Shown here in pieces: positions 11,240 to 43,980 of a stretch of 64,000 nt of DNA. The position numbers were made by a program, and so were the translations under genes. The DNA comes from an uncultured Candidatus Saccharibacteria bacterium (GTDB lineage: Bacteria; Patescibacteriota; Doudnabacteria; UBA920): the NCBI GenBank assembly GCA_964453405.1, contig CAYVOF010000001.1, positions 1,531 to 65,530 of the forward strand. Direction: 5' to 3'. Below the pieces are notes generated by a model. The model had not been told where the DNA came from. It made no database searches and saw only the letters and a program-made list of their open reading frames with translations. Position 1 is the stretch's first letter. Every line of letters starts with the position of its first letter.

Positions 11240-11248
11240 AGGAGTTTC

Positions 11249-12540: not shown

Positions 12541-12552
12541 AATATCATAATT

Positions 12553-12919: not shown

Positions 12920-12948
12920 TTTACACCTCCCCAAAACCACGCTAATAT
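12920..12948 (+). promoter_or_regulatory. Sigma70-like promoter for mreB, placed for a leaderless transcript
   Basis: TTTACA at 12920-12925, 17-nt spacer, TAATAT at 12943-12948. The mreB ATG lies only 6 nt downstream at 12955. Confidence 0.45.
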
Positions 12949-12954
12949 ACATGT

Positions 12955-14007: not shown

Positions 14008-14120
14008 GGATTAATTTTTATATTTATATGATGGGAAGTGTCATGTAAGGAAACTATCTGAGCACAGCTTTCCGTTCACGAAGTGAACGAAGAAAGCGTA
14101 GCGAAGCTTGTTGACGAATG
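14003..14120 (+). ncRNA. Intergenic nested-palindrome structured element (candidate small RNA or attenuator) between mreB and mreC
   Basis: Outer inverted repeat TTAAGGAT...ATCCTTAA. Inner perfect 17-nt inverted repeat ATGATGGGAAGTGTCAT / ATGACACTTCCCATCAT enclosing about 72 nt. Central 7-bp hairpin CGTTCAC-gaa-GTGAACG. Confidence 0.4.
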
Positions 14121-14149
14121 ACACTTCCCATCATCCTTAAAAATAAAAA

Positions 14150-14947: not shown

Positions 14948-14951
14948 TTTT

Positions 14952-15497: not shown

Positions 15498-15506
15498 GCT
15501 TTAAAT

Positions 15507-17486
15507 ATGCGTCAATCTCGTTTTAATCCATTTTCTACAACGCGATCATCAGATTCGGCCTCAGGCCAAGTTAAATCTGGGCTTGGTTTGGAGTGGGAAG
15601 AAGGTGTTAGTGGGCAAGCAACGCAGGTGCAGGCTTTTGATGAAGATTCTCGCGTAGAACGAAAAATAAAGTGGCCAAAGTGGTTATTATTAGCTGCTTG
15701 TATTATTTTAGGAGGTCAGCTATTTAACTTGCAGGTTATGCAAGGCAGTAATCTTCGCGCTTTAGCCGAAGGTAATCGTTTGCGTTTACAAACTATTTTA
15801 GCGCCGCGCGGCTTTATTCAGGATCGCAATGGCGAAACAATTGCTAAAAATACTGCCAGCTTTAACTTAGCTGTGACGCCGGTGGATTTACCGAAAGACA
15901 ACCGTAGTGAAACTTTTGAACTTATTTCCCAAAAATTTGGCGTACCGAGCAGCGAGATAGAAGCTAAATTAAAATCTGCTATTGGCGGCGTACTTGAGCC
16001 GATTATTATTAAGCGCAATATTACTCAGCAAGAAAGTATTCAGTTTGAAGTGTTAAAAAATAAATTGCCAGGGTTTTCTTTAGTTAACATTCCGGTTCGC
16101 GATTATGTATCGCCAGAAGTATTTTCACATTTACTTGGCTATACCGGAATAATTTCTGACGAGCAATATAAATCTCTAAAATCCGAAGATTACGGCCTCA
16201 ATGATTTTATCGGCAAGTCTGGTATTGAACAATCTTACGAAAAATATATCCGCGGTGTTAACGGTAATAAGCAGGTGGAAGTTGATAGCTCAGGTTTGCC
16301 TATCAAAGAGTTAGGTGAAGCTCAACCGCAACCGGGGAATATCGTTCAGTTAAATATTGACGCAGGTTTGCAAAAAAAGTTGTATGACGATTTTACTGCC
16401 AGCTCGGTGGGAAACAAAGGTGCGGCTGTGGCAATTAATCCAAAAACTGGTGAAGTATTGGCTTTGGTTTCGGTGCCAGGATTTAACAATAATTTATTCG
16501 CACCTGGAATTAAAACCGATGATTATAATGCGCTGGTTAATAATAAATATTTGCCGCTGTTTAATCGTGCGGTCAGCGGGACTTATCCGCCAGGTTCAAC
16601 TATTAAACCAGTTGGCGCAGCTGCGGTATTGCAAGAGAGAATTGTTACGCCTGATACAGTAGTTAATGATAATGGCGTGCTGGTGATTCCGAATCAGTTT
16701 GATCCAAGCGTGTCGTATAATTTTTATGGCTGGAAGCGCGACGGTTTGGGTGCTATGAATGTGCGTTCGGCAATTGCGCAAAGTAGCGATATTTATTTTT
16801 ATACTGTGGCTGGTGGTCACCCTAATTCGAAGATAAAAGGAATTGGTGCCGATAAGTTAGCTGAATATTACAGAAAATTTGGTATGGGTGCATTAACCGG
16901 AATTGATATTAATGGAGAAAAAACTGGCCGTGTAGCTGATCCAGCTTGGAAAGCAGCTTATTACAAAGATGATGCTTTGCTCGGTAAGTGGTATTTGGGA
17001 GACACTTATCATATCGCTATTGGGCAAGGAGATATTTTAGCAACTCCATTACAAGTGGCTGTATGGACCGCTGCAATTGCAAATAATGGCGTGTTAAATC
17101 GTCCGCATTTATTGAAACAAGTTTTGGATCAATCAGGTAAAACTATTTTTACGCCGCAAGTTCAAACGTTAATTAATACGGGGATAAGTTTAGAAAATCT
17201 TAAAGTTGTTCAAGAAGGTATGCGAGATAACGTAACTACTGCCAAGGGTAGTGGTCGCAGTTTGGCGAACTTGCCGATTACTGCAGCTGGTAAAACTGGG
17301 ACCTCTCAGTTTGACGGTTCTGATCCAAGTCGTACTCATGCTTGGTATACAGCTTATGCACCATACGAAGATCCTCAAATCGTGATCACAGTTTTGGTAG
17401 AAGCCGGTGGAGAAGGTCATGCTGCATCTGTACCGATTGTTAAAAATGCTTTGGACTGGTGGGCAAAGAACAGGATGGGAAAATGA
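15507..17486 (+). CDS. mrdA: Penicillin-binding protein 2 (elongasome class B transpeptidase)
   Basis: N-terminal TM helix, dimerisation domain, and transpeptidase motifs (GSTIKP as SxxK, and KTGT). It is encoded with mreBCD. Confidence 0.85.
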   Translation: MRQSRFNPFSTTRSSDSASGQVKSGLGLEWEEGVSGQATQVQAFDEDSRVERKIKWPKWLLLAACIILGGQLFNLQVMQGSNLRALAEGNRLRLQTILAPRGFIQDRNGETIAKNTASFNLAVTPVDLPKDNRSETFELISQKFGVPSSEIEAKLKSAIGGVLEPIIIKRNITQQESIQFEVLKNKLPGFSLVNIPVRDYVSPEVFSHLLGYTGIISDEQYKSLKSEDYGLNDFIGKSGIEQSYEKYIRGVNGNKQVEVDSSGLPIKELGEAQPQPGNIVQLNIDAGLQKKLYDDFTASSVGNKGAAVAINPKTGEVLALVSVPGFNNNLFAPGIKTDDYNALVNNKYLPLFNRAVSGTYPPGSTIKPVGAAAVLQERIVTPDTVVNDNGVLVIPNQFDPSVSYNFYGWKRDGLGAMNVRSAIAQSSDIYFYTVAGGHPNSKIKGIGADKLAEYYRKFGMGALTGIDINGEKTGRVADPAWKAAYYKDDALLGKWYLGDTYHIAIGQGDILATPLQVAVWTAAIANNGVLNRPHLLKQVLDQSGKTIFTPQVQTLINTGISLENLKVVQEGMRDNVTTAKGSGRSLANLPITAAGKTGTSQFDGSDPSRTHAWYTAYAPYEDPQIVITVLVEAGGEGHAASVPIVKNALDWWAKNRMGK

Positions 17487-24729: not shown

Positions 24730-25842
24730 ATGGCTAAATCTAGAAACAAAAATAAAAAGAAAATTAGAGTGGGGGTTATTTTTGGTGGTAAGTCTTCGGA
24801 GCATGAAGTGTCGCTTCAATCAGCAAAAAGTATTATCATCGCGCTCGATCCGGACAAGTATGAAACTGTTTTGATCGGTATCGACAAACGTGGTCGTTGG
24901 CAGCTTCAGGATAATTCAAAATATTTATTAAACAGCGCTGATCCTAAATTAATCAAATTAAATAAATCTAACACTAACTTGTCGCTAGTGCCGGGTACAA
25001 ACGGTCAGCAAATGATTGTACCGATTAGCTCTAAGTCAGCGCCTTATATAGATGTGGCTTTTCCGGTCTTGCATGGTACATATGGCGAAGATGGAACCGT
25101 ACAAGGCTTGTTAGAGGTCTTAGATATCCCATTTGTAGGTGCCGGGGTGCTTGGATCAGCTGTGGGCATGGATAAAGATGTGATGAAGCGTTTGTTGCGT
25201 GACGTGGGCTTGCCGATTGCTAAGTTTGTAACGGTGTTGCGCGGGCAGGTTGTTAGTTTTTCAAAAATTAAAAATCAGCTCGGGATGCCTGTGTTTGTTA
25301 AACCAGCTAATAATGGTTCGTCGGTTGGTGTGAGCAAGGCTTCAACGAAAAAACAATTTGAGCTAGCGATTAAAGAAGCTTTTTTGTTTGATAATAAAAT
25401 TTTAATAGAAGAATTTGTTAAAGGCCGCGAGATAGAAATTTCAGTTTTAGGAAACGAAGCGCCGATAGCTTCGGTAGCTGGTGAGGTTATCCCAAGCCAT
25501 GATTTTTATTCGTATGACGCTAAATATATAGATGAGCAAGGCGCAGCGCTGCAGATTCCTGCCAAATTGCCAAAACCGGTCTTAAAGAAGATGCAAAACG
25601 TGGCTATCGCAGCTTATCAAACACTTTGCATCGAAGGTATGGCACGCGTGGACATGTTTCTTACAAAAAACAATCGTATTGTGATTAATGAATTAAACAC
25701 TATTCCGGGGTTTACTAAAATCAGCATGTACCCAAAATTATGGGAAGCTTCGGGAGTGAGTTATTCAAAGTTACTGGATGCGCTGATTAAATTAGCAATT
25801 GCGCGTCATAATCGACAAAAGAAATTAAAAACTAGTTTGTAA
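24730..25842 (+). CDS. ddl: D-alanine--D-alanine ligase
   Basis: VGVIFGGKSSEHEVSLQSA N-terminus and ATP-grasp motifs (VFVKPANNGSSVGVS, MARVDMFL...NELNTIPGFT). Confidence 0.9.
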   Translation: MAKSRNKNKKKIRVGVIFGGKSSEHEVSLQSAKSIIIALDPDKYETVLIGIDKRGRWQLQDNSKYLLNSADPKLIKLNKSNTNLSLVPGTNGQQMIVPISSKSAPYIDVAFPVLHGTYGEDGTVQGLLEVLDIPFVGAGVLGSAVGMDKDVMKRLLRDVGLPIAKFVTVLRGQVVSFSKIKNQLGMPVFVKPANNGSSVGVSKASTKKQFELAIKEAFLFDNKILIEEFVKGREIEISVLGNEAPIASVAGEVIPSHDFYSYDAKYIDEQGAALQIPAKLPKPVLKKMQNVAIAAYQTLCIEGMARVDMFLTKNNRIVINELNTIPGFTKISMYPKLWEASGVSYSKLLDALIKLAIARHNRQKKLKTSL

Positions 25843-26972
25843 TGTTTTTCAAAAAGAAAAAACCAAAACTTGATGCTAAGGTACGATTTCAGCACAAGCA
25901 ATTTACGACTAAGCTTGGTTCAGCGCGTTCGTATCGTCGTACTGCTGTTGCAGTACCAGAAAGCAAATTGCAACGCTGGTTGGCTAATATTGGACTCGGT
26001 TCAAAATGGTCACAAATTTTAGTTGGCTTATTTGTACTCGTGATTATTTATTTAATCTATTTACCAAACTTTTTAACTATAAAAGAAATAAAAATTTCTG
26101 GTTTGTCTGAATCACAAACCCATGATTTGGATAGTAGAATTCGTGATCAAATTACAGAAGTCGGTTTTTATAGAGCGCAAAACAATTTATTTTTATTCAA
26201 TGACGATTTAGCTAAAACTGCAGCAGCAAAATTAGCTAGCGTTAATTCAATTTTGCAAGTCAAAAAAGATTATAAAAATCAGACATTAATAATAGTGGCC
26301 GAAAGTAAATACGAGAAATATTTAGTCGCTACTCAGGAAAAAGTTTTTGATGTTTACAATGACGGCACTTTCAAAGCCGAAGCAGGTGTAGCAAGAGATA
26401 ATTGGATTAATATTGATAACCCGAATATGATAAAAGTTGAGTTGTATGAAAATGCTAACTCACAAAATGGTCAGCAGTTTTTTGACCCAACGCTTCAGCA
26501 GTTTATCAGTACTTTAAATGACCGGCTTAAAATTATGGAAAACTTTAAGATCGCTTATTATAGTTTTCATGATCCAAAAGTTGATCGTGTAGTAACGCAT
26601 GATGATATCGCAGAGCAGGTTCAATCTGCAGAAAAACCGGCAACTGCTTCGGCAGCAATTTCTACCAGTGAAGATATTGAACCAGCTTCGACAAGTGAAG
26701 CGCAAACCACTCCTACAGCTCAAGAAAATCCGGAATTAAAATTACCGTTCAACAGCTCGGAAGTTAACGTGGTGTTCTATAAAGGCGCAGACAAAAAACG
26801 ATTCTTTAAGGTTATTTTTGATGCAACTCGAGATTCTCAAAAAACCATGGAAGACCTAAAATTATTATTAGCACAAACTGCTCCGGATAGGTTCAATCAA
26901 TTAGATTATATTGATATGCGTATTGATTCTAAGGCATTTATCTGTTTACTAAATGCGCCTTGCGCTAAATAA
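25842..26972 (+). CDS. ftsQ: Cell division protein FtsQ/DivIB-like (POTRA domain) with an acidic S/T-rich C-terminal extension
   Basis: Basic cytoplasmic N-terminus, one TM helix and POTRA-like IKEIKISGLSESQTHDLDSRI, in the murF-ddl-ftsQ position. Start overlaps the ddl stop. Confidence 0.5.
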   Translation: MFFKKKKPKLDAKVRFQHKQFTTKLGSARSYRRTAVAVPESKLQRWLANIGLGSKWSQILVGLFVLVIIYLIYLPNFLTIKEIKISGLSESQTHDLDSRIRDQITEVGFYRAQNNLFLFNDDLAKTAAAKLASVNSILQVKKDYKNQTLIIVAESKYEKYLVATQEKVFDVYNDGTFKAEAGVARDNWINIDNPNMIKVELYENANSQNGQQFFDPTLQQFISTLNDRLKIMENFKIAYYSFHDPKVDRVVTHDDIAEQVQSAEKPATASAAISTSEDIEPASTSEAQTTPTAQENPELKLPFNSSEVNVVFYKGADKKRFFKVIFDATRDSQKTMEDLKLLLAQTAPDRFNQLDYIDMRIDSKAFICLLNAPCAK

Positions 26973-27016: not shown

Positions 27017-27472
27017 CTAATTTCCGGTAGTGTTACCACCTCCGGTGCGACATTCAATTTGTCTTACACCTGTATCTAGATTGTCTCTTATCTTGCCTGT
27101 TGGTGTTGCATTGTGACGCTCGCATGTGTCTGGTGATGTAATCCAAAATGTTGAACCTAGTAAATCACTAGATGTTGAGGTGTCTGTACCTTTTGGTACC
27201 CAGGGCGGAGTGCCGGTGTTAGCTTTTGTTGAAGTACTAGTACCTTTTTGATCACATCCAGTGGATGTCCAAGTTCCACCCCATCTCTCACAGCAAGATT
27301 GGCTAGAGTTAGCATCACAACTATTTTTCATGCTAGCATCCGAATGAGTTCCGTCTAAGCTAGCTAAAGGCCCTGCTCCATACATGCGAGCTGTAAACAT
27401 CCAGCCAATTAGTGCACCGACTAGGAATATAACAACACTTTTTACAATGTCTTGATTATTCATTTTTTTCAT
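27017..27472 (-). CDS. Secreted/membrane-anchored cysteine-rich protein (151 aa)
   Basis: N-terminal hydrophobic anchor, then about 8 Cys plus G/T/S-rich segments (SCDANSSQSCCERWGGTWTSTGCDQKG...). No family recognised. Confidence 0.4.
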   Translation of the reverse strand: MKKMNNQDIVKSVVIFLVGALIGWMFTARMYGAGPLASLDGTHSDASMKNSCDANSSQSCCERWGGTWTSTGCDQKGTSTSTKANTGTPPWVPKGTDTSTSSDLLGSTFWITSPDTCERHNATPTGKIRDNLDTGVRQIECRTGGGNTTGN

Positions 27473-27539
27473 TTGTATTAATTTACTTATCTATATTATA
27501 AAGTTTTGAAACAGCATCAACAAACTAGTTGTCCACAGC

Positions 27540-29099
27540 TTAATTAACTCGATACTCAGTAACCACAACCCAAGTTCCAACATATGGCCGTACTTCGGCA
27601 AAACCGTGCTCGTCGATTTGGGTCCAGTTTGTCGGTACGATTGGTTTACTGCCTCCAAAACCTGTTGTCCAAACCATCCACACGGTACTTCCTTTAGTAG
27701 CGTCACTAAAGTTTAGTAACAAGTCTGATTCAGTCAAAATCGCAGTACCGGCGTAGTGTGGCAAGTTTTCAACATGATTACCATTGGTGTACAACAGAGG
27801 CGCGATACCAGACTTGTTGTAATATTTGTAATTAAAGAATTCAAAACTGCTGGCCACAATAATTTTGTGATCGTTTTGAGCATTAGCATTAATAATGCTA
27901 GATAATGCAGCCATGCCAGGTTTTTTATCAACTTGTAATTCGTGCCAATAATACCAAGTGCCAAATAAATTTAAAACAACGAGCGTAATTAGGAATAAAT
28001 ACTTCAAACCACGAATCTTAATTTGCTCGAGCCACAAAGCAATCATTATTAACAAGAAAGGCGAGGCGAATAAAAAGTATCGCACTAAATAAACAGAAGA
28101 TGTTTCACCCTTCAATTTTGCTAAGATGGCGAACATGATACTACCAGCAAATGGGGCGACAAACAAACCGATTACTAACCATTTCCCAGTTTGTTGGTAA
28201 GATTTGATTATGCGAATTGTAAACCAAATGGTTGCCAGTAAAATTAATACCATAACAAATTTATACGGTGCGCCAATATGAATTATTAAGTCATATAGTG
28301 TACTTGGAATGCTCCAGACGTCCATCGGCGGAATCCAGTAACCCGCCCCAACTTGTTTGAATTGAAATAAAAAGATTTTAAGCCAAGGTAAAAATAGAAC
28401 GCCAATGCCGATTCCGGATAACAATAATAATGCGTAGCGCGAGAACTGCCATCGAAAAGTTTTCCAAAGATGAAAGATTCCGTATAACCCTAAGCCTACC
28501 ACTGAGAAAAGTAAATAGTAGTGGGTATAAGTTAAGATGCTGGCGCTAACAGTAAAAGCTGTGTAAGCCGCAACTACTTGGCTTAGCTTGGGCTTTAAAA
28601 TTATTCCAGTTGGTAAGTAGTAGTTTTTGGTAATCTCCAAAGCCTTCACTAACAAATAAGCAGTTAGGACCACAAAGAATGCACCCATGGTGTACATGCG
28701 CGCTTCGGTTACATATTGAATCTGAAATGGATTAAGTGCAACCAAGGTCGCAGCCATTAACGCAGTATTGTTATTTGCAAAAACTTTTTTTACTAATAGA
28801 TAGGTGATAATAATAGTGGCGACACCAAACAGCACCGACAATCCACGCAAGCTATATAACGAATCACCTAACACATAGTGCCAAAATCGTAAGAAGTAAT
28901 AGTACATTGGTGGATGTACATCCAAACCAATGCGGTAGGTCATTTCGCCCCATGAGTATTTAATCAATAAGGCAGAAAAAGCTTCGTCATGCCAAAGAGA
29001 AATAGCAGTGAGTTTGTATAGGCGTAAAAGTATGCCCGCACCAGTAATGCTGAGTAGGATCCAATTTCGATTTAAAAACGCGTTGAGTTTTTGTAGCAT
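27540..29099 (-). CDS. GT-C fold glycosyltransferase, PMT/ArnT-like (GT39/GT83 family)
   Basis: Polytopic membrane protein with LWHDEAFSAL in the first periplasmic loop, the signature of the dolichyl-phosphate-mannose/ArnT family. Confidence 0.65.
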   Translation of the reverse strand: MLQKLNAFLNRNWILLSITGAGILLRLYKLTAISLWHDEAFSALLIKYSWGEMTYRIGLDVHPPMYYYFLRFWHYVLGDSLYSLRGLSVLFGVATIIITYLLVKKVFANNNTALMAATLVALNPFQIQYVTEARMYTMGAFFVVLTAYLLVKALEITKNYYLPTGIILKPKLSQVVAAYTAFTVSASILTYTHYYLLFSVVGLGLYGIFHLWKTFRWQFSRYALLLLSGIGIGVLFLPWLKIFLFQFKQVGAGYWIPPMDVWSIPSTLYDLIIHIGAPYKFVMVLILLATIWFTIRIIKSYQQTGKWLVIGLFVAPFAGSIMFAILAKLKGETSSVYLVRYFLFASPFLLIMIALWLEQIKIRGLKYLFLITLVVLNLFGTWYYWHELQVDKKPGMAALSSIINANAQNDHKIIVASSFEFFNYKYYNKSGIAPLLYTNGNHVENLPHYAGTAILTESDLLLNFSDATKGSTVWMVWTTGFGGSKPIVPTNWTQIDEHGFAEVRPYVGTWVVVTEYRVN

Positions 29100-29103
29100 T
29101 TGC

Positions 29104-30792
29104 TTATTTTATCACGTATACCGCCATCACGGTTTGGCCAAACTTGTTGCGAGTTTCCTGCTCAAGTTCGGCTTCGGGGTGGTACTGTTTAAATTTTTTA
29201 ATATCAAAAATACTAGATTGAGTAAACACTAATGTATCACCAATTTGTAAATCTGCTAATTTCCACGAATCTTCTGGGTCAACTTGAATGTATGGAGTGC
29301 CGATATCAGACGTTGTGTAATCAAGAGTCTGAACTGAGAATTTATCTAAAATCAGATAAGTTTTAAATGTCGTTTTAACCTTGAGGGAATATTGTTGTTT
29401 AAAATAATCCGCAACCATAGTCAGATCACTACGGAAGGCGTAAAAGTTTTCTGGACTGTTATAGGCCTCAACAAAATAGAGAATATAAGTTTGTGAAGTT
29501 AGCGCAGCCACAAATACTACAAACATAATCATCACGGCATTGTTGATCAGTTTTTGCTTCCATTCAGAAATTTGTAACATATAAGGATGACCGATTGCGC
29601 TTGCTCGATCGTACACAGCGGCAATACCAAGTGCTGCCAAAATAAATACTACCGGAATTGTTCCAATTGAACGCAGGCCATGAGGGATTCCTTCAGCAGT
29701 AGTTATTACAGGAACAAGCATAGACCAGAACCAGCCAGCCAGGGCAAAATAAATCCAATCAGCTTTATATTTATGCGGTAAAAAGGTGTAGCGCGCAGCT
29801 CGCAAGGTCGCCATGATTAATCCGATTAAAAAGAACGGCGAGATAATAATAGACAAAAATGGTTGTCCCGAAATATTGTGTCTCCAGTTTAGGTCACCAT
29901 CAGCAAAGTAGGCGCGCAGGCTTAAGCCCGTAACTTCGCCTATAGTGCCGATTAGGTTGCCTTGATTTAGTTCTGGGTTGAACACAGACACCTGTCCGCT
30001 TCGTCCTACAAATGAGCCTGGGTGAGTATAAAAATAATGGGCAATAGGAAAGATCACGACTACAAATGCAATTCCCGCCAAGATAGTCGGTAAAAAGTAT
30101 TTTTTAATTTGAACAAACCGCGGGGTTTTAAAGATATCCACTAGCATTGGCCAGAACACTAAAATCGCAACCACTGGTGCAAAAATTCGGTAGGCGATGT
30201 AAGTGTAAAATCCGAGAGCAAAAGCGACTCCAGTACCGATGGCGTGCCAATATCTTTTGGCGCGAGTCTTTGCTTGGTAGGTAGCGACTAAGAAGTACAA
30301 AGTCAGCGTGGTAAATAGCGGAATCAAATTGGCTCGAAACGCTGTGCGGGACAATACTACGTGCCAACTTGATACGGCCATGGTAAACATCGCTAACAGT
30401 GCAATCCAATTGGCTCGAGATATTTTGTCGGCGCGTTTTGTTGGGTCAGTTTCATCATCAGCGTCTTCGCCGATTAACAACAAGCGGCGTGTTAAAAAGA
30501 AAGTCATTACTACAGCGAGCGTTCCAACAGTGGCCGAAACAATATGATGTTGCCATGGTCCTTTGCCAAACAACTCTACACTACCCCAAAGCATATAAAA
30601 GAACAACGCTTCGCGGCCGTTACCGCGTTCGTAAAAAGGCTGCAGTTGTCCGTGCTGCATCAAGTTAATATCTAAACCATTGGCTGCTTCGTCAGGAAAT
30701 AAGCCTCCCGGCATTTGTCCAATCAAGTAAAATCGGAAAAATATCGACAGGATTAGGATACTAAGAAACAAAAATTTTTGTTTTGATGTCAT
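29104..30792 (-). CDS. Second GT-C fold glycosyltransferase, PMT/ArnT-like
   Basis: FPDEAANGL loop-1 motif, more than 10 TM helices. Tandem with the preceding paralogue, with 4 nt between them. Confidence 0.65.
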   Translation of the reverse strand: MTSKQKFLFLSILILSIFFRFYLIGQMPGGLFPDEAANGLDINLMQHGQLQPFYERGNGREALFFYMLWGSVELFGKGPWQHHIVSATVGTLAVVMTFFLTRRLLLIGEDADDETDPTKRADKISRANWIALLAMFTMAVSSWHVVLSRTAFRANLIPLFTTLTLYFLVATYQAKTRAKRYWHAIGTGVAFALGFYTYIAYRIFAPVVAILVFWPMLVDIFKTPRFVQIKKYFLPTILAGIAFVVVIFPIAHYFYTHPGSFVGRSGQVSVFNPELNQGNLIGTIGEVTGLSLRAYFADGDLNWRHNISGQPFLSIIISPFFLIGLIMATLRAARYTFLPHKYKADWIYFALAGWFWSMLVPVITTAEGIPHGLRSIGTIPVVFILAALGIAAVYDRASAIGHPYMLQISEWKQKLINNAVMIMFVVFVAALTSQTYILYFVEAYNSPENFYAFRSDLTMVADYFKQQYSLKVKTTFKTYLILDKFSVQTLDYTTSDIGTPYIQVDPEDSWKLADLQIGDTLVFTQSSIFDIKKFKQYHPEAELEQETRNKFGQTVMAVYVIK

Positions 30793-30870
30793 TGGTATTT
30801 TCTGGCGCTTTGGCGATAGTTATCAAGTTTGTTATAATAACGGCACTATCTATACATTTTTTAGGCAGTT

Positions 30871-31224
30871 ATGACTGAATTAACGCACAATTCGCACCAG
30901 TTTGCTAAGCTTGCTAAAGTCCTGTGGATCTTAGCAGTGGTTGTCTTTATTTTATCACTGGTAGTGATAATTATCAAAGTGTCGGTCAGCTCACCGGTAT
31001 CGGCTTTGCGTTACAATGTGATTTTAGGTGTAAGTGAAATCGGCAGCCGTTATAAGTTATTGCAATTGCCCTTAGCTGGATTTTTAATTGGCGTGGTAAA
31101 TTATGCGCTAGTTAGATACAATCGGACCAGTCAACAAATTTTGCCACTTCTTGCTGCGATGGTTACGGTCTCACTCAATATTATTTTGTTGCTAGCCGCA
31201 CTATTGTTATTCCAAGTTAACTAA
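30871..31224 (+). CDS. Small membrane protein (117 aa)
   Basis: Three predicted TM helices, lying immediately upstream of the GT2 gene. Confidence 0.35.
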   Translation: MTELTHNSHQFAKLAKVLWILAVVVFILSLVVIIIKVSVSSPVSALRYNVILGVSEIGSRYKLLQLPLAGFLIGVVNYALVRYNRTSQQILPLLAAMVTVSLNIILLLAALLLFQVN

Positions 31225-31238
31225 CTTCCTTTTAGGTT

Positions 31239-32909
31239 ATGAGTCAGCCAATTTTTAGAACTCGCACTCGCGTTGATCGTCTTTGGGAGATTATTCCAGG
31301 CCTGTCATTTTGGACAGTCTTTTTTGGCGCCATTTTGTTGTCTTACTACCGACCGGTCTGGGCAGCAATTTTTATTGTTTGTTTTGACTTGTACTGGGTA
31401 CTCAAGGCCTGTAATGTAGCTGTGCATTTAATCGCCAGCTATCGTCGGTTCCGTGTGTATGTGACATTAGATTGGCTTGAATATGTCGAATTACTCCCAC
31501 AAAGAGATAAATTAATCGCTCTATATAAATCACGTATTCCTCAAGCAACCCGTGCATTGGAACGCAAGTTTTATCGCCAACAAATTAAGCGTTTAAATCG
31601 CCCAATTGAGAATGAGGTTATTAACAGAAGCTACCGCGATTTTTATCATGTAATTGTGATTCCTTTTGTAGATGAAAGTTTTCAAATTTTAAGTTCTACT
31701 TTAGAAGCGTTGACCGAAGTACAATATCCAAAAGATCGTATGATGTTAATCTTAGCTTCCGAAGAGCGTGCTGGGGCAGCTGCGCAAGAAGTTGCTCAAC
31801 AAATACAAACAAAATTTGGTCCTATCTTTGCCAAGATGTTTGTTACGATTCACCCTGATGGATTGCCAGGAGAAATAAAAGGAAAGAGTGCTAATGCTAG
31901 TTACGCAGTATCGACAATCGTTCCAGAGTTAGAAGCAATGGGTATCAAGCAAGATGAAGTTTTGATTTCCAACTTTGATAGCGATACAATTGTGCATCCG
32001 CAATATTTTACTCGTGTGATGTATGAATTTTTAACTAACCACAAACCGTACCGTCGTAGTTATCAGCCAGTGTCAGTTTATAATAATAATATTTGGGATA
32101 GTCCGGCGTTTATTCGCGTGGTATCTGTATCAAACTCTTTCTGGCAATTTACAGAAAGCTCTCGACCGGATCGCTTGCGTACTTTTTCTTCTCACACAAT
32201 GACGCTCAAAGCCTTGGTAGAAATCGGTTACTGGAAAAAAGATTTAATCAACGAAGATGGTTATGTATTTTGGCAGTGCTATTTACATTATAAAGGTGAC
32301 TACGAAGTTGTGCCTTTGTTCGTTCCTGTTTCTTTGGATACTTGTCTCGCCGACACTTTTTGGCAAACTTTAAAAAATCAGTACAAGCAAAAAAAGCGTT
32401 GGGCGTATAACGTGGAATATTATCCGCATTTAGTTCCAGCATTATTAAAAAGCAAAGCGCCATTTTTTGATCGCATGTATAAGTTATTTCAATATATAGA
32501 AGGAAACTTTAACTGGGCAACAGCGAGTTTGTTAATTTCGATTTTGGGATGGCTGCCATTAATTATCGGTGGTGCAGAGTTTCAGCAAACTGTTGTGGCG
32601 TATAATTTACCAACCGCGACCCGAACATTAATGACCATTGCCACTGCGTTTTTAATCTTTAGCGTCTATATTAACTTAATTTTATTGCCGCCACGACCCA
32701 AAAAATACGGTTGGGGGAAGAGCGTTATGATGTATCTGCAGTGGTTTTTGGTACCAATTACTTCGGTAATATTTGGTAGTTTGCCTGCTATTGAAGCGCA
32801 GACTCGCTTAATGTTTGGTTGGTATTTGGAATTTTGGGTTACGCCTAAAGCTCGCAAAGGTGAAGTAACTGGCAAAGATATGCCAGAGATGAAGCAGATT
32901 CACCATTAG
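31239..32909 (+). CDS. Membrane-embedded family-2 glycosyltransferase (processive synthase-like)
   Basis: N-terminal TM helices, GT-A core with VIVIPFVDES and NFDSDTIVHP (DxD), and C-terminal TM bundle. Confidence 0.6.
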   Translation: MSQPIFRTRTRVDRLWEIIPGLSFWTVFFGAILLSYYRPVWAAIFIVCFDLYWVLKACNVAVHLIASYRRFRVYVTLDWLEYVELLPQRDKLIALYKSRIPQATRALERKFYRQQIKRLNRPIENEVINRSYRDFYHVIVIPFVDESFQILSSTLEALTEVQYPKDRMMLILASEERAGAAAQEVAQQIQTKFGPIFAKMFVTIHPDGLPGEIKGKSANASYAVSTIVPELEAMGIKQDEVLISNFDSDTIVHPQYFTRVMYEFLTNHKPYRRSYQPVSVYNNNIWDSPAFIRVVSVSNSFWQFTESSRPDRLRTFSSHTMTLKALVEIGYWKKDLINEDGYVFWQCYLHYKGDYEVVPLFVPVSLDTCLADTFWQTLKNQYKQKKRWAYNVEYYPHLVPALLKSKAPFFDRMYKLFQYIEGNFNWATASLLISILGWLPLIIGGAEFQQTVVAYNLPTATRTLMTIATAFLIFSVYINLILLPPRPKKYGWGKSVMMYLQWFLVPITSVIFGSLPAIEAQTRLMFGWYLEFWVTPKARKGEVTGKDMPEMKQIHH

Positions 32910-32925
32910 TTATAATTAAATTGCT

Positions 32926-33999
32926 ATGCCTTACTCTTCATTTTTTATTTTAGCTCTAGTGTTAGCAGCTGTGATTACACCTCTGGTTCGCCGCTTTGCT
33001 ACACGCTTTGGTTATATGGACATTCCGCGCCCACCGCGCAATCTCCATAACAAACCTGTGGCAAAATTGGGAGGTGTCGCGATTTATCTAGCGGTGGTTA
33101 TAGCGATTGGAGTTTTTTGGTTAACCGGTGGAATTGATTTTAATATTGTGCCGGAGCGGTTTATTTTAGCAATCATTTTGGGAGGTGCTGTTTTAGTTGC
33201 GAGTGGGTTAATCGATGATAAGTATGATTTGTCCGCTAAGTACTTGGCTATTTTTCCCATTGTCGCCGCTCTCGTAGTTGTATTTTCTGGAATTGGTATA
33301 GGAATTAAATTTTTATCTAATCCATTTGGTGATCCAATCAGTTTAGGTTTTGGTGTGATAGGAGTTCCTGCGTCAGGGATTTTTATTTTTTTGTGGTTAC
33401 TCGGAATGATGTTTACCACCAAGTTTTTGGATGGTCTTGATGGTCTTGTGGCTGGGATTGGTCTGATAGCTGGTTTAACTTTGTTTGCACTGTCATTAAG
33501 TTCACAAGTAAATCAACCTATTACTGCCACCTTGTGTATTATTTTAGTCGGCGCTTTAGCTGGTTATTTAATTTATGCTTTTAATCCGGCGTCGATATTT
33601 TTAGGCGAAGGCGGAAGCACTATAGTCGGATTTTTCTTGGGCGTATTTTCTGTTATCTTAGGTGCAAAAATTGCCACTGCATTATTAGTAATGGGGATTC
33701 CAATTTTAGATGTGGCTTGGGTGATTGCTCAGCGCGTTTGGTATCGCAAGAGTCCGTTCATCGGTGATCGCTTGCATCTTCATTTTAAATTATTAGACTT
33801 AGGGTTCACACAAAAACAAACTGCACTAGTGTTGTATGGAATCTCAGCCGTGTTTGGATTTACTGCAGTATTTTTACAAGCACGTGGCAAACTTGTCGCA
33901 CTAATTATTTTATTTGCCTTAATGGCTGGATTAATTCTTGGCGTAATTTTTGCATACCGTCGGCGCCAAGCCCACGATGCTGCGCAAGTGGGTGGATAA
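32926..33999 (+). CDS. Polyprenyl-phosphate N-acetylhexosamine-1-phosphate transferase (WecA/TagO/MraY family, GT4 PNPT)
   Basis: PRPPRNLHNKPVAKLGG motif, the LIDDKYDL aspartate-rich loop, and 10-11 TM helices. Confidence 0.8.
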   Translation: MPYSSFFILALVLAAVITPLVRRFATRFGYMDIPRPPRNLHNKPVAKLGGVAIYLAVVIAIGVFWLTGGIDFNIVPERFILAIILGGAVLVASGLIDDKYDLSAKYLAIFPIVAALVVVFSGIGIGIKFLSNPFGDPISLGFGVIGVPASGIFIFLWLLGMMFTTKFLDGLDGLVAGIGLIAGLTLFALSLSSQVNQPITATLCIILVGALAGYLIYAFNPASIFLGEGGSTIVGFFLGVFSVILGAKIATALLVMGIPILDVAWVIAQRVWYRKSPFIGDRLHLHFKLLDLGFTQKQTALVLYGISAVFGFTAVFLQARGKLVALIILFALMAGLILGVIFAYRRRQAHDAAQVGG

Positions 34000-34005
34000 G
34001 TGTGT

Positions 34006-34101: not shown

Positions 34102-34527
34102 GTGAAAGCCAAGCGAGTAGTTGAAGATGAGATAATAGATTATTATACTCGGCTGCGAAATCTTGTTAAGTCTAATCAAAACGGCAACGCTGAAAAGTTT
34201 TTTGACGATAACCATCTAATTAAGGTTTGGGAGCCCCTTTTGTATTACGCAATGACCAGAGGTAATTGCCAAGTGAGTAAGGTCATTTTAAAGCGGGTGG
34301 TTAGTTATCGACAGTTTACTTTAAGCGAATTGAGGGTTAAAACCTCATTGCTTTTGCACGACATTTCTTACGATTTTAGTAATCGAGTTAAATCTTACAT
34401 CACATCAGGTGAATTCGAAGCAGAATTCGCTAAATTCACAAATGTTGCAAGTACAGTACATGCTCAATTAAGAGGACGCACTGGAGATGGTGTGGTTAAT
34501 CTGAAAATGCACCACTTTTCTGGATAA
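34102..34527 (+). CDS. Hypothetical protein (141 aa), GTG start
   Basis: AGGAGG sits 7 nt upstream of GTG at 34102. The ORF translates to KAKRVVEDEIIDYYTRLRNLVKSNQNG.... Confidence 0.4.
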   Translation: MKAKRVVEDEIIDYYTRLRNLVKSNQNGNAEKFFDDNHLIKVWEPLLYYAMTRGNCQVSKVILKRVVSYRQFTLSELRVKTSLLLHDISYDFSNRVKSYITSGEFEAEFAKFTNVASTVHAQLRGRTGDGVVNLKMHHFSG

Positions 34528-36146: not shown

Positions 36147-36215
36147 CTGCAGTCAGAGTGCTAAATTGAAGACTCTGAAGATTTTGATAAAAATGTAATG
36201 GAGGCATTTGAATAT

Positions 36216-36779
36216 ATGAGATTAGTGTTATTTGCTTTGGTACCAGCTGTGGTGGTATTTGTCGTTACTTTACTTTTCGGTTTTTCCGAAACCGCAATAG
36301 TTATTTCTACCGGAGTGGGAGCTGTGCTGGGAGTAATCGTTGGGTTTGCGTCCACCCCAGACTATGATGACGATGAGTTATTTTCTCGCTCATCCAATCG
36401 AAGGAGTAACTATGGCGACGGTGTCGGGAGTGCACGAGGCTCAGGGCCTGACAGCCCTCCATCTCAGCGCACTGGGTCGCAGAAACGGCGTGATAACTCG
36501 GGTGTTGTTACAGACTCATCGTCACCATTCGATTATGGATATGGTGATTCTACTCACTCATCGTCACACACGGCTGACAGTCCTACTAGTCATGAGTCTG
36601 GCGGTCATTCTTTTGGTGGCGGCGGAGACTTTGGTGGCGGCGGAGCAGGTGGAAGTTTTGGTATCAGTCATTCTAGCAGCGCTTCCCATTCCGATACCAG
36701 TAGCCACTCTGACAGTGGTGGCAGCAGTGGAGGTGACAGTGGCGGAGGTGGTGACGGCGGGGGCGGAGGTGGTGATTAA
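36216..36779 (+). CDS. Membrane protein with a long Gly/Ser/Asp-rich disordered C-terminal tail
   Basis: GGAGG sits 11 nt upstream of ATG at 36216. Two TM helices, then low-complexity SHSSSASHSDTSSHSDSGGSSGGDSGGGGDGGGGGGD. Confidence 0.45.
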   Translation: MRLVLFALVPAVVVFVVTLLFGFSETAIVISTGVGAVLGVIVGFASTPDYDDDELFSRSSNRRSNYGDGVGSARGSGPDSPPSQRTGSQKRRDNSGVVTDSSSPFDYGYGDSTHSSSHTADSPTSHESGGHSFGGGGDFGGGGAGGSFGISHSSSASHSDTSSHSDSGGSSGGDSGGGGDGGGGGGD

Positions 36780-38325: not shown

Positions 38326-40437
38326 ATGAAAGTATTAGTAACCGGTGGAGCAGGATTTATCGGTAGCAACTTTGTTCGCTACTGGTTAAAAAATCACCCT
38401 CACGACACAGTCGTGAATTTTGATGCGCTTACTTATGCCGGAAACTTAGATAGCCTTCATGATTTAACAGTTAATCCCGAAACCAAAGATCGCTATAAAT
38501 TTATTCATGGCGATATTACCGATCCAATCGCAGTGCGCGAAGCAATGCGCGGTGTTGATTTAGTGGCGCACTTTGCGGCAAATTCTCACGTCGATCGCAG
38601 TATTGTTGAGCCGGGAAATTTTGTTAACACTAACGTGATGGGTACACAGGTTTTATTAGAAGAAGCTAAGAACGCAGGCGTGTGGCGTTTTCATCATGTG
38701 TCCACTGACGAAGTTTACGGAACACTGACTGTTGATGGTGATGAACTCTTTACCGAAGACACTAAGTACGCTCCCAACAATCCATACTCTGCTAGCAAGG
38801 CTGGTTCGGACATGGTCGTTCGTTCTTATTACAAGACTTACGATTTTCCTGCAACAATTACCAACACCTCCAACAACTTTGGTGCGTATCAGTTTCCAGA
38901 AAAATTTATCCCGTTGTGTATCACTCGTTTACTAGATGGCAAGAATATTCGGTTACATGGCAAAGGCGATCACATTCGTGATTGGTTGTTCGTCGAAGAT
39001 CATTGCCGTGCGATTGAACAAGTATTGCGCCGTGGCAAACTCGGCGAAGTTTATTTGGTTGCTGGTCGTGCGCAACTTTCTACTTTAGAAGTGGCACAAC
39101 GCATTTGTAAAGTCATGGGTGTAGGTGAAGATCGAATTGAATTCGTTCCTGATCGTCCAAGTAATGACAAAGCTTACAAACTCGACTGGAGCAAAATTAA
39201 TCGCGAACTTGGTTGGGAACCGTTGTTCAGTTTTGATGAATGGCTAGAACAAACTATCAATTGGTATCAAAATAACGAAGCTTGGTGGCGCCCACTAGTT
39301 AAACAGGGCTTTAGCTGGGGCAGTGTTGGTCACAAAGAAGAAGAAACAGAAGGTAAGGCTGTTAGTGTTCAGCAATCTGCTTACGGAAAAGCCAGTGAAG
39401 CTATTTCTAACTCGTCTGATTCACAACCAATTACTTTTTTAGAAAATTCCGGAATTCCAGCTAAACATCATTCAGATCAAAAACAGAAGGTATTAATTTT
39501 TGGTAATGGCCAGATGAGCATGCATTTCCGCAAGCATTACGAAGCACAAGGCGTGGAGGTGGTTATCGCCGCGTTGCCAGAAGTTAATGTTTTGAACGAG
39601 GTTCAAGTTGCAAATACTATTGATCAAGTTAAACCAACAGTGGTCTTTAACTGTACTGGCATGACCAATGTTGATTGGTGTGAAGCTAATCAAGAAGAAG
39701 CCTTAGCGGTTAATGTTCGTGGTGCCGAAAATATTGCTCGTGCTTGCATGCAAAAAAATGTTTACATGGTTCATTTTTCTACCGGCTATGTTCATGACTC
39801 TAAAGATATTACTGACGAACGCACAGAACTTGATCGCCCGAATCCAATTAATTTTTATGCACATACAAAAGCTAAAGCTGATGAGAGCTTAGCGCAGATG
39901 GCCAAGGTTGGGTTGAAGGTTTTGATTGTTCGAACTAATGCTTTGTTATCCGCCGTGCCACATCCAAAAAATGTGTTGGCCAAGATGACAATCTATCAAA
40001 AGTTTCACGATACTTATAGTTCAATGACAATCATTGAGGATCTCGTGGTTGCTACAGCTAAATTAGTTGAACAGCAAAAAACTGGTTTGTACAACGTTGT
40101 AAACCCTGGATTAACTTCACCGCTACGAATTGCCAACATGCTAAAAGAAATTATTAATCCTGACATGCAAATCGAACAACTCAGTAAGGCTGATGTCGAA
40201 AAAATGTATGCCGTGTTGCGACCAGATAGTATTTTATCGATTGCAAAATTGAACCGCGAAGGAATCCAGATGCCAGAAATTAATCAACGCTTACGCGGAA
40301 TAATTACTGTATTGCGTGATAATCTACGAAGCGAATCTGCTAAAGAGATTATGACCTTTACTGCTCAAGAAGATCAAAAGAAAAAAGACCTTAAGCAGGT
40401 TCAAGTAATCAATAACTTATTTAACAAAAACAGTTAA
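38326..40437 (+). CDS. Fusion protein: dTDP-glucose 4,6-dehydratase (RfbB/RmlB) N-terminal half plus dTDP-4-dehydrorhamnose reductase (RfbD/RmlD) C-terminal half
   Basis: Residues 1-330 carry MKVLVTGGAGFIGSN...YAGNL...SKAGSD (YxxxK) SDR motifs of RmlB. Residues about 385-650 carry KVLIFGNGQMSMHF...NCTGMTNVDWCE typical of RmlD. They are joined by a roughly 55-aa polar linker. Confidence 0.75.
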   Translation: MKVLVTGGAGFIGSNFVRYWLKNHPHDTVVNFDALTYAGNLDSLHDLTVNPETKDRYKFIHGDITDPIAVREAMRGVDLVAHFAANSHVDRSIVEPGNFVNTNVMGTQVLLEEAKNAGVWRFHHVSTDEVYGTLTVDGDELFTEDTKYAPNNPYSASKAGSDMVVRSYYKTYDFPATITNTSNNFGAYQFPEKFIPLCITRLLDGKNIRLHGKGDHIRDWLFVEDHCRAIEQVLRRGKLGEVYLVAGRAQLSTLEVAQRICKVMGVGEDRIEFVPDRPSNDKAYKLDWSKINRELGWEPLFSFDEWLEQTINWYQNNEAWWRPLVKQGFSWGSVGHKEEETEGKAVSVQQSAYGKASEAISNSSDSQPITFLENSGIPAKHHSDQKQKVLIFGNGQMSMHFRKHYEAQGVEVVIAALPEVNVLNEVQVANTIDQVKPTVVFNCTGMTNVDWCEANQEEALAVNVRGAENIARACMQKNVYMVHFSTGYVHDSKDITDERTELDRPNPINFYAHTKAKADESLAQMAKVGLKVLIVRTNALLSAVPHPKNVLAKMTIYQKFHDTYSSMTIIEDLVVATAKLVEQQKTGLYNVVNPGLTSPLRIANMLKEIINPDMQIEQLSKADVEKMYAVLRPDSILSIAKLNREGIQMPEINQRLRGIITVLRDNLRSESAKEIMTFTAQEDQKKKDLKQVQVINNLFNKNS

Positions 40438-42456: not shown

Positions 42457-43980
42457 ATGCCACCTACAGTTAACGACGACGATAAAAAATTCCCTAATGC
42501 CACCGAAGGTATCGCTGGCTTGTTAAACATTACTGCGCACGGTAACACAGGTCCACGGCCAGTTGACCAAGAGACATCTGAAGAGACATCTGAAGAATCA
42601 GCTGAGTCAACCTCTATGTTCGCAGAAAAATCAGTTGCACCACCAAGCAATTTGCCATTTGCAGATCAATCCGAGGATGAACATATGGACGAACTTGTAG
42701 GTGAACCAGTTGCTCAACCAACAAATGAGCCTAAGGATATAGCCAGCATGTTAAGTAGTCAACCAGTAAAGACACCAGAAGGAAAAATTGAAACGGTTGC
42801 CCAGGATCCTCCAGTTGGTACTAACTTAGAATCTACAAAAATAGTTAACCGCGGTTTTAATGTCATAAAAAAAATCCTACCTTACGTAGTAATTTTTGCC
42901 ATTGCTATAGGTTTGTATTTTTTCTATTTTAATGACTTTAGCTTTACGAGCTTATTTAATTCCCAGACTCTTAAACTAGAAAGTATAACCAGTTCTAATA
43001 CTAATAAAGAATATGAACAGCTTAAAAAAGATGCTGCGGCGGATTACGCTGTTTGGCTTAATCAATTTTTTACTGATGTTAATGACGATAGTATTTCGAG
43101 CATGGACGCCGATGTATCTGGTAATGGTTTAACTAACTTTGAAAAATATTTACTCAACTTAAATCCGAAAGTTTATTCTACTCGTGGCGGAACAGGGGAT
43201 GGTCAGTCCGTACTAGATGGTGTTAATCCTTGGACAGGCAAAACTTTTACAGATAAACAAAAACAACTAGTAGAAAAATATCTAAACCCAGAACTAATTA
43301 GCAACCGAATTACTGCAGCGGCAATTACTCGAGGCGTAACTAAATATGCACAATATGTAAATCCAGACTCCCCTTACTACATTGATCCAGCAACTCTTCA
43401 ACAGGCTGGTAGTAGCACTCAAGCCGTAGTTACTCCTACTCAGATTTCTACCACAACTCCGGCGAATATTCCAACCAACCAACAACCAAGTAATACTGTT
43501 AGTAATTTGCGACCAGACGAATCTATTGATCAAAGTAAACCGGCAATGTTAGACATTCCCGCGAATAAAATTTCTGTACCGTTAACATGGACTCAGGACG
43601 TCAAAGATTTTGAAGTAGATTTAAAGAAGGGTGTAGTGCATTATCCAGGCACGGCAATGCTAGGTGAAGTTGGTACGAGTTATATTTCTGGACATTCAAG
43701 TGGTTACGCATGGGACAAGAGCCCTTATAAACAAATTTTCGCTGGCTTAGGCGGCGTTAAAGATGGAACTTCATTTTCTATCACTGCAACTCAAAAGAAC
43801 GGTAAGACTGTGAAGTATAATTATATTGTTGATCATCGAGGTGAATTTGCCGCTAATGACCAGGCTCAATTCTTAAGCACCTCTGACTCTGTAGTAGCTT
43901 TATCGACTTGCTGGCCTGTTGGGACTACGGCGCGTCGATTAGTTCTTTTTGGTAAACTAACTCAAACTGAAAGAAGCTAA
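42457..43980 (+). CDS. Sortase-like transpeptidase with a long acidic/ST-rich N-terminal region and one TM helix
   Basis: The C-terminal about 200 aa carry a His (YISGHSSGY), the TLxTC-like active-site motif VALSTCWP, and a downstream Arg (TTARRLVLF). Confidence 0.5.
   Translation: MPPTVNDDDKKFPNATEGIAGLLNITAHGNTGPRPVDQETSEETSEESAESTSMFAEKSVAPPSNLPFADQSEDEHMDELVGEPVAQPTNEPKDIASMLSSQPVKTPEGKIETVAQDPPVGTNLESTKIVNRGFNVIKKILPYVVIFAIAIGLYFFYFNDFSFTSLFNSQTLKLESITSSNTNKEYEQLKKDAAADYAVWLNQFFTDVNDDSISSMDADVSGNGLTNFEKYLLNLNPKVYSTRGGTGDGQSVLDGVNPWTGKTFTDKQKQLVEKYLNPELISNRITAAAITRGVTKYAQYVNPDSPYYIDPATLQQAGSSTQAVVTPTQISTTTPANIPTNQQPSNTVSNLRPDESIDQSKPAMLDIPANKISVPLTWTQDVKDFEVDLKKGVVHYPGTAMLGEVGTSYISGHSSGYAWDKSPYKQIFAGLGGVKDGTSFSITATQKNGKTVKYNYIVDHRGEFAANDQAQFLSTSDSVVALSTCWPVGTTARRLVLFGKLTQTERS

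Follow-up and report, generated by a model that had tools for sequence, protein, structure and literature searches.

What glycan is made at a locus where genes for two glycosyltransferases of the GT-C superfamily, a membrane-embedded glycosyltransferase of family 2 (GT2) and a WecA-like initiating transferase lie together, flanked by genes for MurF, Ddl, an FtsQ-like protein, PBP2 and MreBC? The question is raised by a stretch of 64,000 nucleotides (contig CAYVOF010000001.1, positions 1,531 to 65,530; hereafter the window, meaning the whole 64-kb stretch) from a bacterium of the Patescibacteria, or candidate phyla radiation (CPR), of the Doudnabacteria type. The CPR makes up a large share of bacterial diversity, its members are host-attached and have very reduced genomes, and their envelope polymers are hardly known. 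Our reading, to which we assign a probability of roughly 45%, is that the locus builds and decorates an envelope glycan that would be primed on a lipid, made by a synthase, and extended or decorated by GT-C enzymes outside the membrane. The main interest lies in the GT2 and the small membrane protein encoded just upstream of it, a pair that is very strongly conserved beside ftsQ across the CPR. The locus has the following features:

27540 to 29099, minus strand: GT-C1, a polytopic glycosyltransferase of 519 aa whose extracytoplasmic C-terminal domain spans about 130 aa; loop-1 motif SLWHDEAFSAL
29104 to 30792, minus strand: GT-C2, a polytopic glycosyltransferase of 562 aa with the loop-1 motif GGLFPDEAANG
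30793 to 30870: divergent intergenic region of 78 bp with overlapping promoter-like sites, one per operon
30871 to 31224, plus strand: small membrane protein of 117 aa with three helices and the loop motif AL(H/R)YN..GV
31239 to 32909, plus strand: membrane-embedded GT2 of 556 aa, predicted to consist of a pair of N-terminal helices, a GT-A domain and helices at the C-terminus
32926 to 33999, plus strand: PF00953 protein of 357 aa, of the WecA/TagO-like polyprenyl-phosphate N-acetylhexosamine (HexNAc)-1-phosphate transferase family
46356 to 47081, plus strand: soluble Dpm1/ArnC/PgfS-like GT2 of 241 aa, 13 kb away and presumed to be accessory

A check of the open reading frames (ORFs) in the window recovered all of those named in an initial annotation of this DNA, coordinates included, and its description of the block as lipid-carrier-type glycan enzymes, comprising two GT-Cs, a GT2 and an initiator, is upheld. 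It made no mention of the 117-aa membrane ORF upstream of the GT2, and it had the GT2 and initiator following the GT-Cs. The GT-Cs are indeed in tandem, the GT-C2 gene being co-transcribed with and upstream of the GT-C1 gene, head-to-tail on the minus strand with a gap of 4 bp; the genes for the small protein, the GT2 and the initiator, separated by 14 and 16 bp, are not same-strand successors of this pair, and run divergently from it on the plus strand with 78 bp between the two operons. Putative promoters, identified by match to consensus only, are TTGGCG-17-TATAAT with an extended -10 (30810-30838) for the plus strand, and TTGATA-18-GAAAAT (30826-30797) for the minus strand.

The GT2 resembles hyaluronan synthase, cellulose synthase and PgaC, and is predicted to be a synthase-type enzyme. 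Its motifs PFVDES, NFDSDT, INEDGY and QYKQKKRW are invariant in an alignment of 31 sequences, and represent the signature motifs D, DxD, (T)ED and QxxRW of beta-glycan synthases that are embedded in the membrane. Comparison by hhalign aligned the ED and QxxRW region with Escherichia coli PgaC, as a weak match (70% probability, E 4e-5), and the first D and DxD, weakly, with BcsA; no alignment with ArnC was obtained. The top Foldseek matches of an AlphaFold model, one of limited quality for which the available homologues were all at least 68% identical, were Chlorella-virus and Xenopus hyaluronan synthases and BcsA. Ranking second among the structure matches was PcManGT, a non-processive relative, and because such relatives also have QxxRW, this motif does not by itself imply processivity. 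Pfam gave only weak, sub-threshold Glyco_trans_2_3 matches, NCBIfam a single weak match to PgaC_IcaA, and single-sequence and profile searches of the PDB no meaningful match. The "membrane GT2" of the initial annotation is therefore a membrane GT2 as described, though not a generic one: it is hyaluronan-synthase/BcsA/PgaC-like, with a small partner of its own. In an exhaustive profile search, counted as clusters at 50% identity, the family numbered 411 members at E<=1e-30 and, with the threshold relaxed to E<=1e-10, 1409; the few that carry names are from Patescibacteria ("Patescibacteria group", "Howlettbacteria").

The small protein encoded at 30871-31224, for which three hydrophobic helices are predicted and which matches no Pfam or NCBIfam family, is a conserved partner gene of the GT2. 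In Doudnabacteria loci a homologue always immediately precedes the GT2, and the same holds for the diverged CPR loci L086, L087, L093, L094 and L095, where the small proteins are homologous to that of the window (hhalign 87-98%) and have the AL(H/R)YN loop motif in common with it. A comparable arrangement is found in IcaA-IcaD and PgaC-PgaD, in which the GT2 synthase gene adjoins the gene for a small membrane protein (about 100-140 aa) that is needed for full synthase activity, and both the only NCBIfam match of our GT2 and the hhalign alignment of its ED/QxxRW region point to PgaC. Unlike in PgaC-PgaD, the small protein gene at this locus precedes the synthase gene and does not follow it, and its product, a three-helix protein, is not detectably similar to PgaD; nor is there a deacetylase or an IcaC/PgaA-type partner as in systems for poly-N-acetylglucosamine (PNAG). 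Separately, the candidate identities PgaD and ArnE/ArnF were rejected for the small protein at the sequence level, since hhalign found no similarity to either.

A GT2, a small membrane protein and GT-Cs are also what three-component Gtr systems consist of. In these and in CsbB systems, the GT2 is about 300 aa long with two C-terminal helices, and a four-helix flippase of the GtrA family is encoded beside the GT-C. Were our locus such a system, its GT2 would make a polyprenyl-phosphate monosaccharide, the small protein would flip it and the GT-Cs would transfer the sugar. We consider this very improbable. The gene content is superficially like that of GtrB/GtrA/GtrC and CsbB/GtcA/YfhO (PMC5836110), and YfhO genes have been inserted at the locus in some lineages, but the adjacent GT2 has a predicted synthase-type architecture with QxxRW and aligns with PgaC and not with ArnC. 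The small protein has three helices instead of four, with no GtrA match in Pfam and no ArnE/ArnF similarity, and the window already holds a separate Dpm1/ArnC-like GT2 13 kb away.

To place the block in its genomic setting, we scanned GTDB species representatives, found a GT2 relative in 387 genomes, and compared the best 80 loci from these, aligning the window proteins to them by tblastn; identities are medians relative to the window protein. They were 68% for the GT2, 61% for ribosomal protein L21 (rplU), 58% for the WecA-like initiator, 55% for GT-C2, 49% for GT-C1, 45% for MurF, 35% for the small membrane protein and 31% for the FtsQ-like protein. The GT2 is thus more conserved than L21 or MurF in the same genomes. 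Because it is conserved above these two proteins, always paired with the small protein and situated beside ftsQ, the synthase is a strong candidate for a core envelope function. The initial annotation had proposed comparing related genomes to see whether the locus is conserved as a unit, and it is: where the upstream flank was long enough, 54 of 56 loci have both GT-C genes in canonical order and strand, and where the downstream flank was, 60 of 61 have the initiator, directly adjoining the GT2 in 53. Named homologues of GT-C1, GT-C2 and the GT2 are from Patescibacteria, mostly labelled "Candidatus Doudnabacteria" and in some cases, among records of metagenome-assembled genomes, generically "uncultured Candidatus Saccharibacteria". 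These names, together with a sortase in the window, fit a monoderm-like CPR context, a probable monoderm having been proposed.

Loci outside this group separate the parts of the block. L086 and L087, whose GT2 is about 40% identical, keep the order small protein, GT2, WecA-like gene and L21 with changed outer flanks, and have no adjacent GT-C gene. L093 and L095 both begin with PBP2, FolD, GreA and lysyl-tRNA synthetase (LysRS) and continue, after an interval, with FtsQ, small protein, GT2 and L21. In L094 the pair (3296-4733) lies a few genes downstream of a BacA/UppP gene and a DedA/VTT-domain gene. In diverged CPR lineages the small protein and GT2 pair thus adjoins ftsQ and rplU; it is the old core of the block, an older CPR-wide module. 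As an aside on L094, BacA/UppP (undecaprenyl-diphosphatase) and DedA/VTT are both linked to the recycling of the polyprenyl-phosphate carrier.

GT-C genes, in turn, have been added more than once. In several lineages of Doudnabacteria, extra genes lie between the GT2 and the initiator: PMT_2 genes in L027 and L081, a YfhO gene in L048 with homologues in L050 and L082, and in L039 an insert with a PMT/PMT_2 protein and a GT2 fusion. At L085, a 416-aa relative of GT-C2 (hhalign 96.8%, E 3e-10) is encoded divergently from a GT2 homologue of 30% identity. Since GT-C genes were recruited repeatedly and independently, a functional link with the operon is suggested, which indicates that the GT-C enzymes act on its product. 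The L039 fusion (10992-13202, minus strand) is a 736-aa protein with a Dpm1-type GT2 domain and a large polytopic membrane domain, encoded beside the GT2; its neighbours (9746-16516) include another three large membrane proteins, among them a PMT/PMT_2 protein, and these genes look like a self-contained cassette of donor synthase and GT-C.

GT-C1 and GT-C2 are genuine, distantly paralogous members of the GT-C superfamily. GT-C enzymes carry a catalytic acidic residue in the first extracytoplasmic loop, just after helix 1. The loop-1 Asp-Glu motifs by which the initial annotation had recognised the two proteins (LWHDEA, residues 35-40 of GT-C1; FPDEAANG, residues 32-39 of GT-C2) lie directly after helix 1, as judged from the GT-C2 model and the hydropathy profile, and D38-E39 of GT-C1 and D34-E35 of GT-C2 are invariant in alignments of 30 sequences each. 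GT-C1 passes the Pfam cut-off for PMT_2 (42.8 bits, cut-off 26.1, E 8.5e-11) and, marginally, that for PMT (PF02366; 24.6 bits, cut-off 22.7, E 2.2e-5); the sole Pfam match of GT-C2 is a sub-threshold PMT_2 hit of 19.6 bits. An AlphaFold model of GT-C2 (pLDDT 80.4, pTM 0.83) has ArnT (5f15) as its top Foldseek match in the PDB (E 1.3e-7), followed by archaeal AglB and eukaryotic STT3, AftA, Pmt1/2/4, ALG9 and AftB (E to 4e-3). When the 30-sequence alignments were compared by hhalign, the two proteins matched over about 214 N-terminal columns with 94% probability (E 1e-7), and SLWHDEAFSAL was aligned with GLFPDEAANGL. The assignment to the superfamily and the paralogy follow from the fold match, this hhalign result and the aligned, invariant Asp-Glu.

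The choice between the CAZy families GT39 and GT83 that the initial annotation had posed appears, at the level of sequence, to be supported in neither direction. Alignment with E. coli ArnT by hhalign reached a probability of 12% for GT-C1 and 3% for GT-C2, and the likeness to ArnT is at fold level only, in GT-C2. Single-sequence and profile searches of the PDB gave no meaningful match, the profiles retrieving no PMT or ArnT chain at E<=10, and Pfam detected no PMT_4TMC or MIR domain in either protein and no PMT match in GT-C2. The GT-C fold and the acidic first-loop motif are common to ArnT (GT83), the protein O-mannosyltransferases (GT39) and our pair, which differs from them in having no credible sequence alignment to ArnT and no MIR or PMT_4TMC domain.

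These comparisons bear on whether the GT-C pair is a machine that O-glycosylates proteins, possibly a heterodimer, of the type of bacterial Pmt or streptococcal Pgf. Such a machine would pass sugar from the polyprenyl-phosphate carrier loaded by the GT2 at 46356 to Ser/Thr-rich secreted or sortase-anchored proteins, and the GT2 synthase and WecA-like protein would be unrelated neighbours. GT-C1 passes Pfam PMT besides PMT_2, and at about 520 aa without a MIR domain it may resemble actinobacterial Pmt. The best NCBIfam match of the 46356 GT2 is PgfS, the window encodes a sortase, a subtilase and several extracellular proteins rich in Ser, Thr and Pro, and eukaryotic PMTs are dimers of paralogues, as in the Pmt1-Pmt2 structure 6p25 that is among the Foldseek matches of GT-C2. 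We nevertheless find a protein target unlikely: the PMT score of GT-C1 is marginal and comes with no PMT_4TMC domain, neither profile retrieved a PMT chain, the fold closest to GT-C2 is that of ArnT with oligosaccharyltransferases next, and a Cys-rich, Ser/Thr-rich ORF neighbouring the pair is not conserved. The YfhO-type insertions at the locus also suggest a polymer, not a protein, as the target (Rismondo et al. 2018, PMC5836110).

The initiator was correctly placed in the WecA family by the initial annotation, matching PF00953 with an E-value of 7e-24, and on its sequence it is best regarded as a member of the WecA/TagO branch of the polyprenyl-phosphate N-acetylhexosamine-1-phosphate transferases (PNPT), and not as MraY. 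NCBIfam scored it at 91.7 bits for WecA and 40.8 bits for MraY, both under the cut-off, and a 19-sequence profile aligned by hhalign with E. coli WecA at 99.7% probability (E 6e-27, score 190) and with E. coli MraY at 98% (E 3e-13, score 98). Its motifs DDKYD, LDGLDGL and GDRLHLHF match the DDxxD, DGIDGL and DRQHIHH of WecA. Since 91.7 bits is under the cut-off of 326 for the WecA equivalog TIGR02380, specificity for UDP-GlcNAc is not implied. In the PDB the profile matched MraY (72 bits) and GPT (38 bits), with no bacterial WecA chain at E<=1. Identification as MraY was rejected on the better WecA scores, the presence of DRxHxH instead of HHH, and the distinctness of a canonical CPR MraY, which in L084 has the motif PFHHH and is 27% identical to the initiator over 45% of the query length. 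A further observation on this protein is that the PNPT motif NxxNxxDGxDGL reads TTKFLDGLDGL in Doudnabacteria, with both Asn replaced, and that the outgroup loci L086 and L087 retain NAFNFLDGIDGL and NAMNFLDGTDGL at this motif.

From the folds and families, the invariant motifs and the synteny observed here, we infer the substrates, the processivity, the coupling of steps and the final acceptor, which may be a protein or a wall polymer, of a pathway in three layers that would differ in evolutionary age. In the oldest, the small protein and the GT2 most likely use a UDP-sugar at the membrane's inner face to polymerise a beta-linked glycan, and translocate the chain to the other side, the small protein presumably serving as an auxiliary subunit, by analogy with the way IcaD and PgaD help IcaA and PgaC. 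The middle layer would be the WecA-like phosphotransferase, gained downstream, which most likely makes polyprenyl-PP-HexNAc, whether to prime the synthase or to anchor a linked polymer. The two co-transcribed GT-C paralogues, gained divergently, would be the youngest layer and act on the outer face. Their sugars may come from polyprenyl-phosphate carriers, for which the Dpm1/ArnC-like GT2 at 46356 is a plausible source, and together with the extra GT-Cs of other lineages they could extend or decorate the polymer, as in the assembly of arabinogalactan and lipoglycan or the glycosylation of teichoic acid and rhamnan.

All of the components belong to known superfamilies, and each step of this logic has precedents. 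A precedent for the primer would be the synthase-dependent, WecA-primed O:54 antigen of Salmonella, made by WecA, WbbE and WbbF, as mentioned in PMC2841628. There, too, a WecA-family initiator is paired with a membrane GT2 of the hyaluronan-synthase type; at our locus elongation and export are only predicted, no WbbE-type adaptor transferase or WaaL step was identified, and this bacterium has no outer membrane. The locus differs further in its dedicated small membrane partner of the synthase, its two adjacent GT-Cs, and the very low sequence similarity of its GT2 to known synthases, as seen in the absence of a PDB sequence match.

The logic proposed here is also that of mycobacterial arabinogalactan and lipoarabinomannan (WecA, GlfT2, AftA/B, Emb and Mpt, with decaprenyl-phosphate sugars), in which a HexNAc-1-phosphate primer is placed on a polyprenyl carrier, a GT2 acts as polymerase, and several paralogous GT-Cs extend the glycan outside. 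AftA and AftB are among the structural matches of GT-C2. In contrast to the soluble GlfT2, the GT2 of the locus is membrane-embedded and synthase-like, and the GT-Cs are much smaller, lack carbohydrate-binding modules and have no sequence-level relationship that we could find. In teichoic-acid and rhamnan systems (CsbB/GtcA/YfhO; GacI/GacJ/GacK/GacL), a GT-C decorates the wall polymer using a C55-P-sugar made by a small GT2 (PMC5836110). The YfhO-family insertions in some lineages and the Dpm1/ArnC-like GT2 and Wzx in the window are reminiscent of these, whereas the block contains no flippase of the GtrA/GtcA family and its adjacent GT2 is of the synthase type, not the CsbB/GacI type. The combination of a WecA-like protein, a hyaluronan-synthase-like GT2 with a small subunit and multiple GT-Cs is undescribed, as far as literature searches show, and for the GT2 subfamily, the small partner and GT-C2 there is no curated model above threshold or no relative of known structure that sequence searches detect.

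Several points weigh against a lipid-primed, synthase-made and GT-C-decorated glycan. Synthases of hyaluronan, cellulose and PNAG work without a lipid primer. In Doudnabacteria collinearity extends over the entire neighbourhood (PBP2, FolD, GreA, LysRS, seryl-tRNA synthetase and MurF as far as L21), so that adjacency within this group is weak evidence for coupling. L093 and L095, the deepest relatives, carry the small protein and GT2 pair with no adjacent initiator or GT-C; hence, the synthase does not strictly need these in cis. Where the "MGDxGS" motif of MraY and WecA has its Asp, the initiator aligns a Glu in Doudnabacteria and a Thr in the outgroup loci L086 and L087. The window yielded no LCP-type ligase, and literature searches on glycosyltransferases and teichoic acid in Patescibacteria, CPR and Doudnabacteria turned up nothing on this locus.

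Some of these points would also be expected if the locus were a mosaic of independent modules, neighbours only through lineage-wide conservation of gene order. The product of the small protein and GT2 would then be a free exopolysaccharide, similar in type to PNAG, chitin or hyaluronan and made with no lipid primer, as is established for known synthases of this fold; the WecA-like protein would start the rhamnose glycan of a Wzx/Wzy cluster at 36.8-63.2 kb, and the GT-Cs would modify either product or something else. The collinear housekeeping flanks and the solitary pair in L093 and L095 agree with this. So do the rml genes directly after L21 in L001 and L002, and the fact that Pfam scans, which covered nearly all window ORFs of at least 140 aa, find no second initiating transferase (PF00953 or PF02397) despite the rhamnose-type cluster. 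A mosaic is nonetheless rather doubtful in our judgement: the order GT2, initiator, L21 survives changed outer flanks in L086 and L087, extra GT-Cs were inserted repeatedly and exactly between the GT2 and the initiator, a GT-C2 relative adjoins the very distant GT2 homologue of L085, and the genes of the block are tightly spaced around a shared divergent promoter-like region.

If the coupling of primer, synthase and GT-Cs in our preferred reading is true, an entire CPR lineage would have its main secondary wall polymer defined. A bolder version, in which the small protein and GT2 pair beside ftsQ is a CPR-wide, possibly essential synthase of an undescribed envelope glycopolymer that in Doudnabacteria has become a hybrid WecA-primer/synthase/GT-C pathway, is more speculative and we would not expect it to hold in full. 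In such a pathway, as yet described for no organism, the hyaluronan-synthase-like GT2 would elongate and export the primed chain and a variable set of GT-Cs would extend it outside; ultra-small bacteria would then have a minimal equivalent of arabinogalactan or teichoic acid. Should the coupling not be real, the correction of annotation is still useful, as several of these proteins are now unnamed or go under the labels "hypothetical" or, misleadingly, "GT39 family".

Further glycan genes lie elsewhere in the window, and the identities given them in the initial annotation are confirmed: a Dpm1-like GT2 (46356), a sortase (42457), a Wzx (51450), a cytidylyltransferase (52882) and an O-antigen-ligase-like Wzy_C protein (61633). 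The 46356 GT2 matches PF00535 (E 8e-26), and its best NCBIfam matches are PgfS, at the top, ArnC, dolichyl-phosphate hexose transferase, AglJ and PpgS, all under the equivalog cut-offs; it is a plausible candidate for the maker of the polyprenyl-phosphate-sugar donor of the GT-C enzymes. Besides a rhamnose-type cluster at 36.8-63.2 kb, what the window is seen to encode includes an RmlB-RmlD fusion, FdtA, three GT2s, a GT4, Wzx and Wzy_C. That all these genes together with the block form a complete route, as had been suggested, goes beyond their presence: Wzx, Wzy_C and the cytidylyltransferase are 5-30 kb away, and a link can only be inferred; they belong to an ordinary rhamnose-type Wzx/Wzy cluster that the WecA-like protein might equally serve.

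At the edge of the block, the Cys-rich ORF (27017-27472, minus strand) is real, encoding 151 aa with one N-terminal hydrophobic helix, six Cys and Ser/Thr-rich stretches, and is not a conserved member of it. No homologue was found in any of 83 related loci, and most loci have at this position a 227-aa gene on the plus strand, which in L003 is an amino-acid kinase (PyrH-like). As a conserved acceptor the ORF was therefore rejected as lineage-specific.

The window has a GC content of about 39% and further encodes MreB, MreC and several tRNA synthetases. ARAGORN found no tRNA or tmRNA gene across its 64 kb, and an Rfam scan of the same sequence found no family at its gathering score. The position of FtsQ after Ddl is occupied by a bitopic 376-aa protein (25842-26972, plus strand) with one helix at residues 59-77 and an insert rich in Ser, Thr, Ala, Glu and Pro; it does not match Pfam POTRA, whereas its positional counterpart in L093 does match POTRA_1. 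Between the WecA-like gene and rplU is an ORF for a basic, soluble protein of 141 aa (34102-34527, plus strand, GTG start). Its position in L001-L003 is filled by genes of similar size (138-176 aa), and detectable sequence similarity is found solely in the closest relative, L004 (34%), so it may be fast-evolving or not a real gene.

Within the rhamnose cluster, the 703-aa ORF at 38326-40437 (plus strand) fuses dTDP-glucose 4,6-dehydratase (RmlB), above the NCBIfam cut-off, to a domain like dTDP-4-dehydrorhamnose reductase (RmlD) that is just under its own; in L002 RmlB and RmlD are separate genes. The sortase domain of the 507-aa protein at 42457-43980 (plus strand) is confined to the last approximately 140 residues, preceded by an acidic N-terminal region, one membrane helix and a long linker rich in Ser, Thr, Pro and Gln, and it scores under the cut-offs of every NCBIfam sortase class. 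At 36198-36779 (plus strand) is a 193-aa protein without a family match, which has a membrane helix at its N-terminus and a low-complexity tail extremely rich in Gly, Ser and Asp; an ORF of 151 aa overlaps it in another frame.

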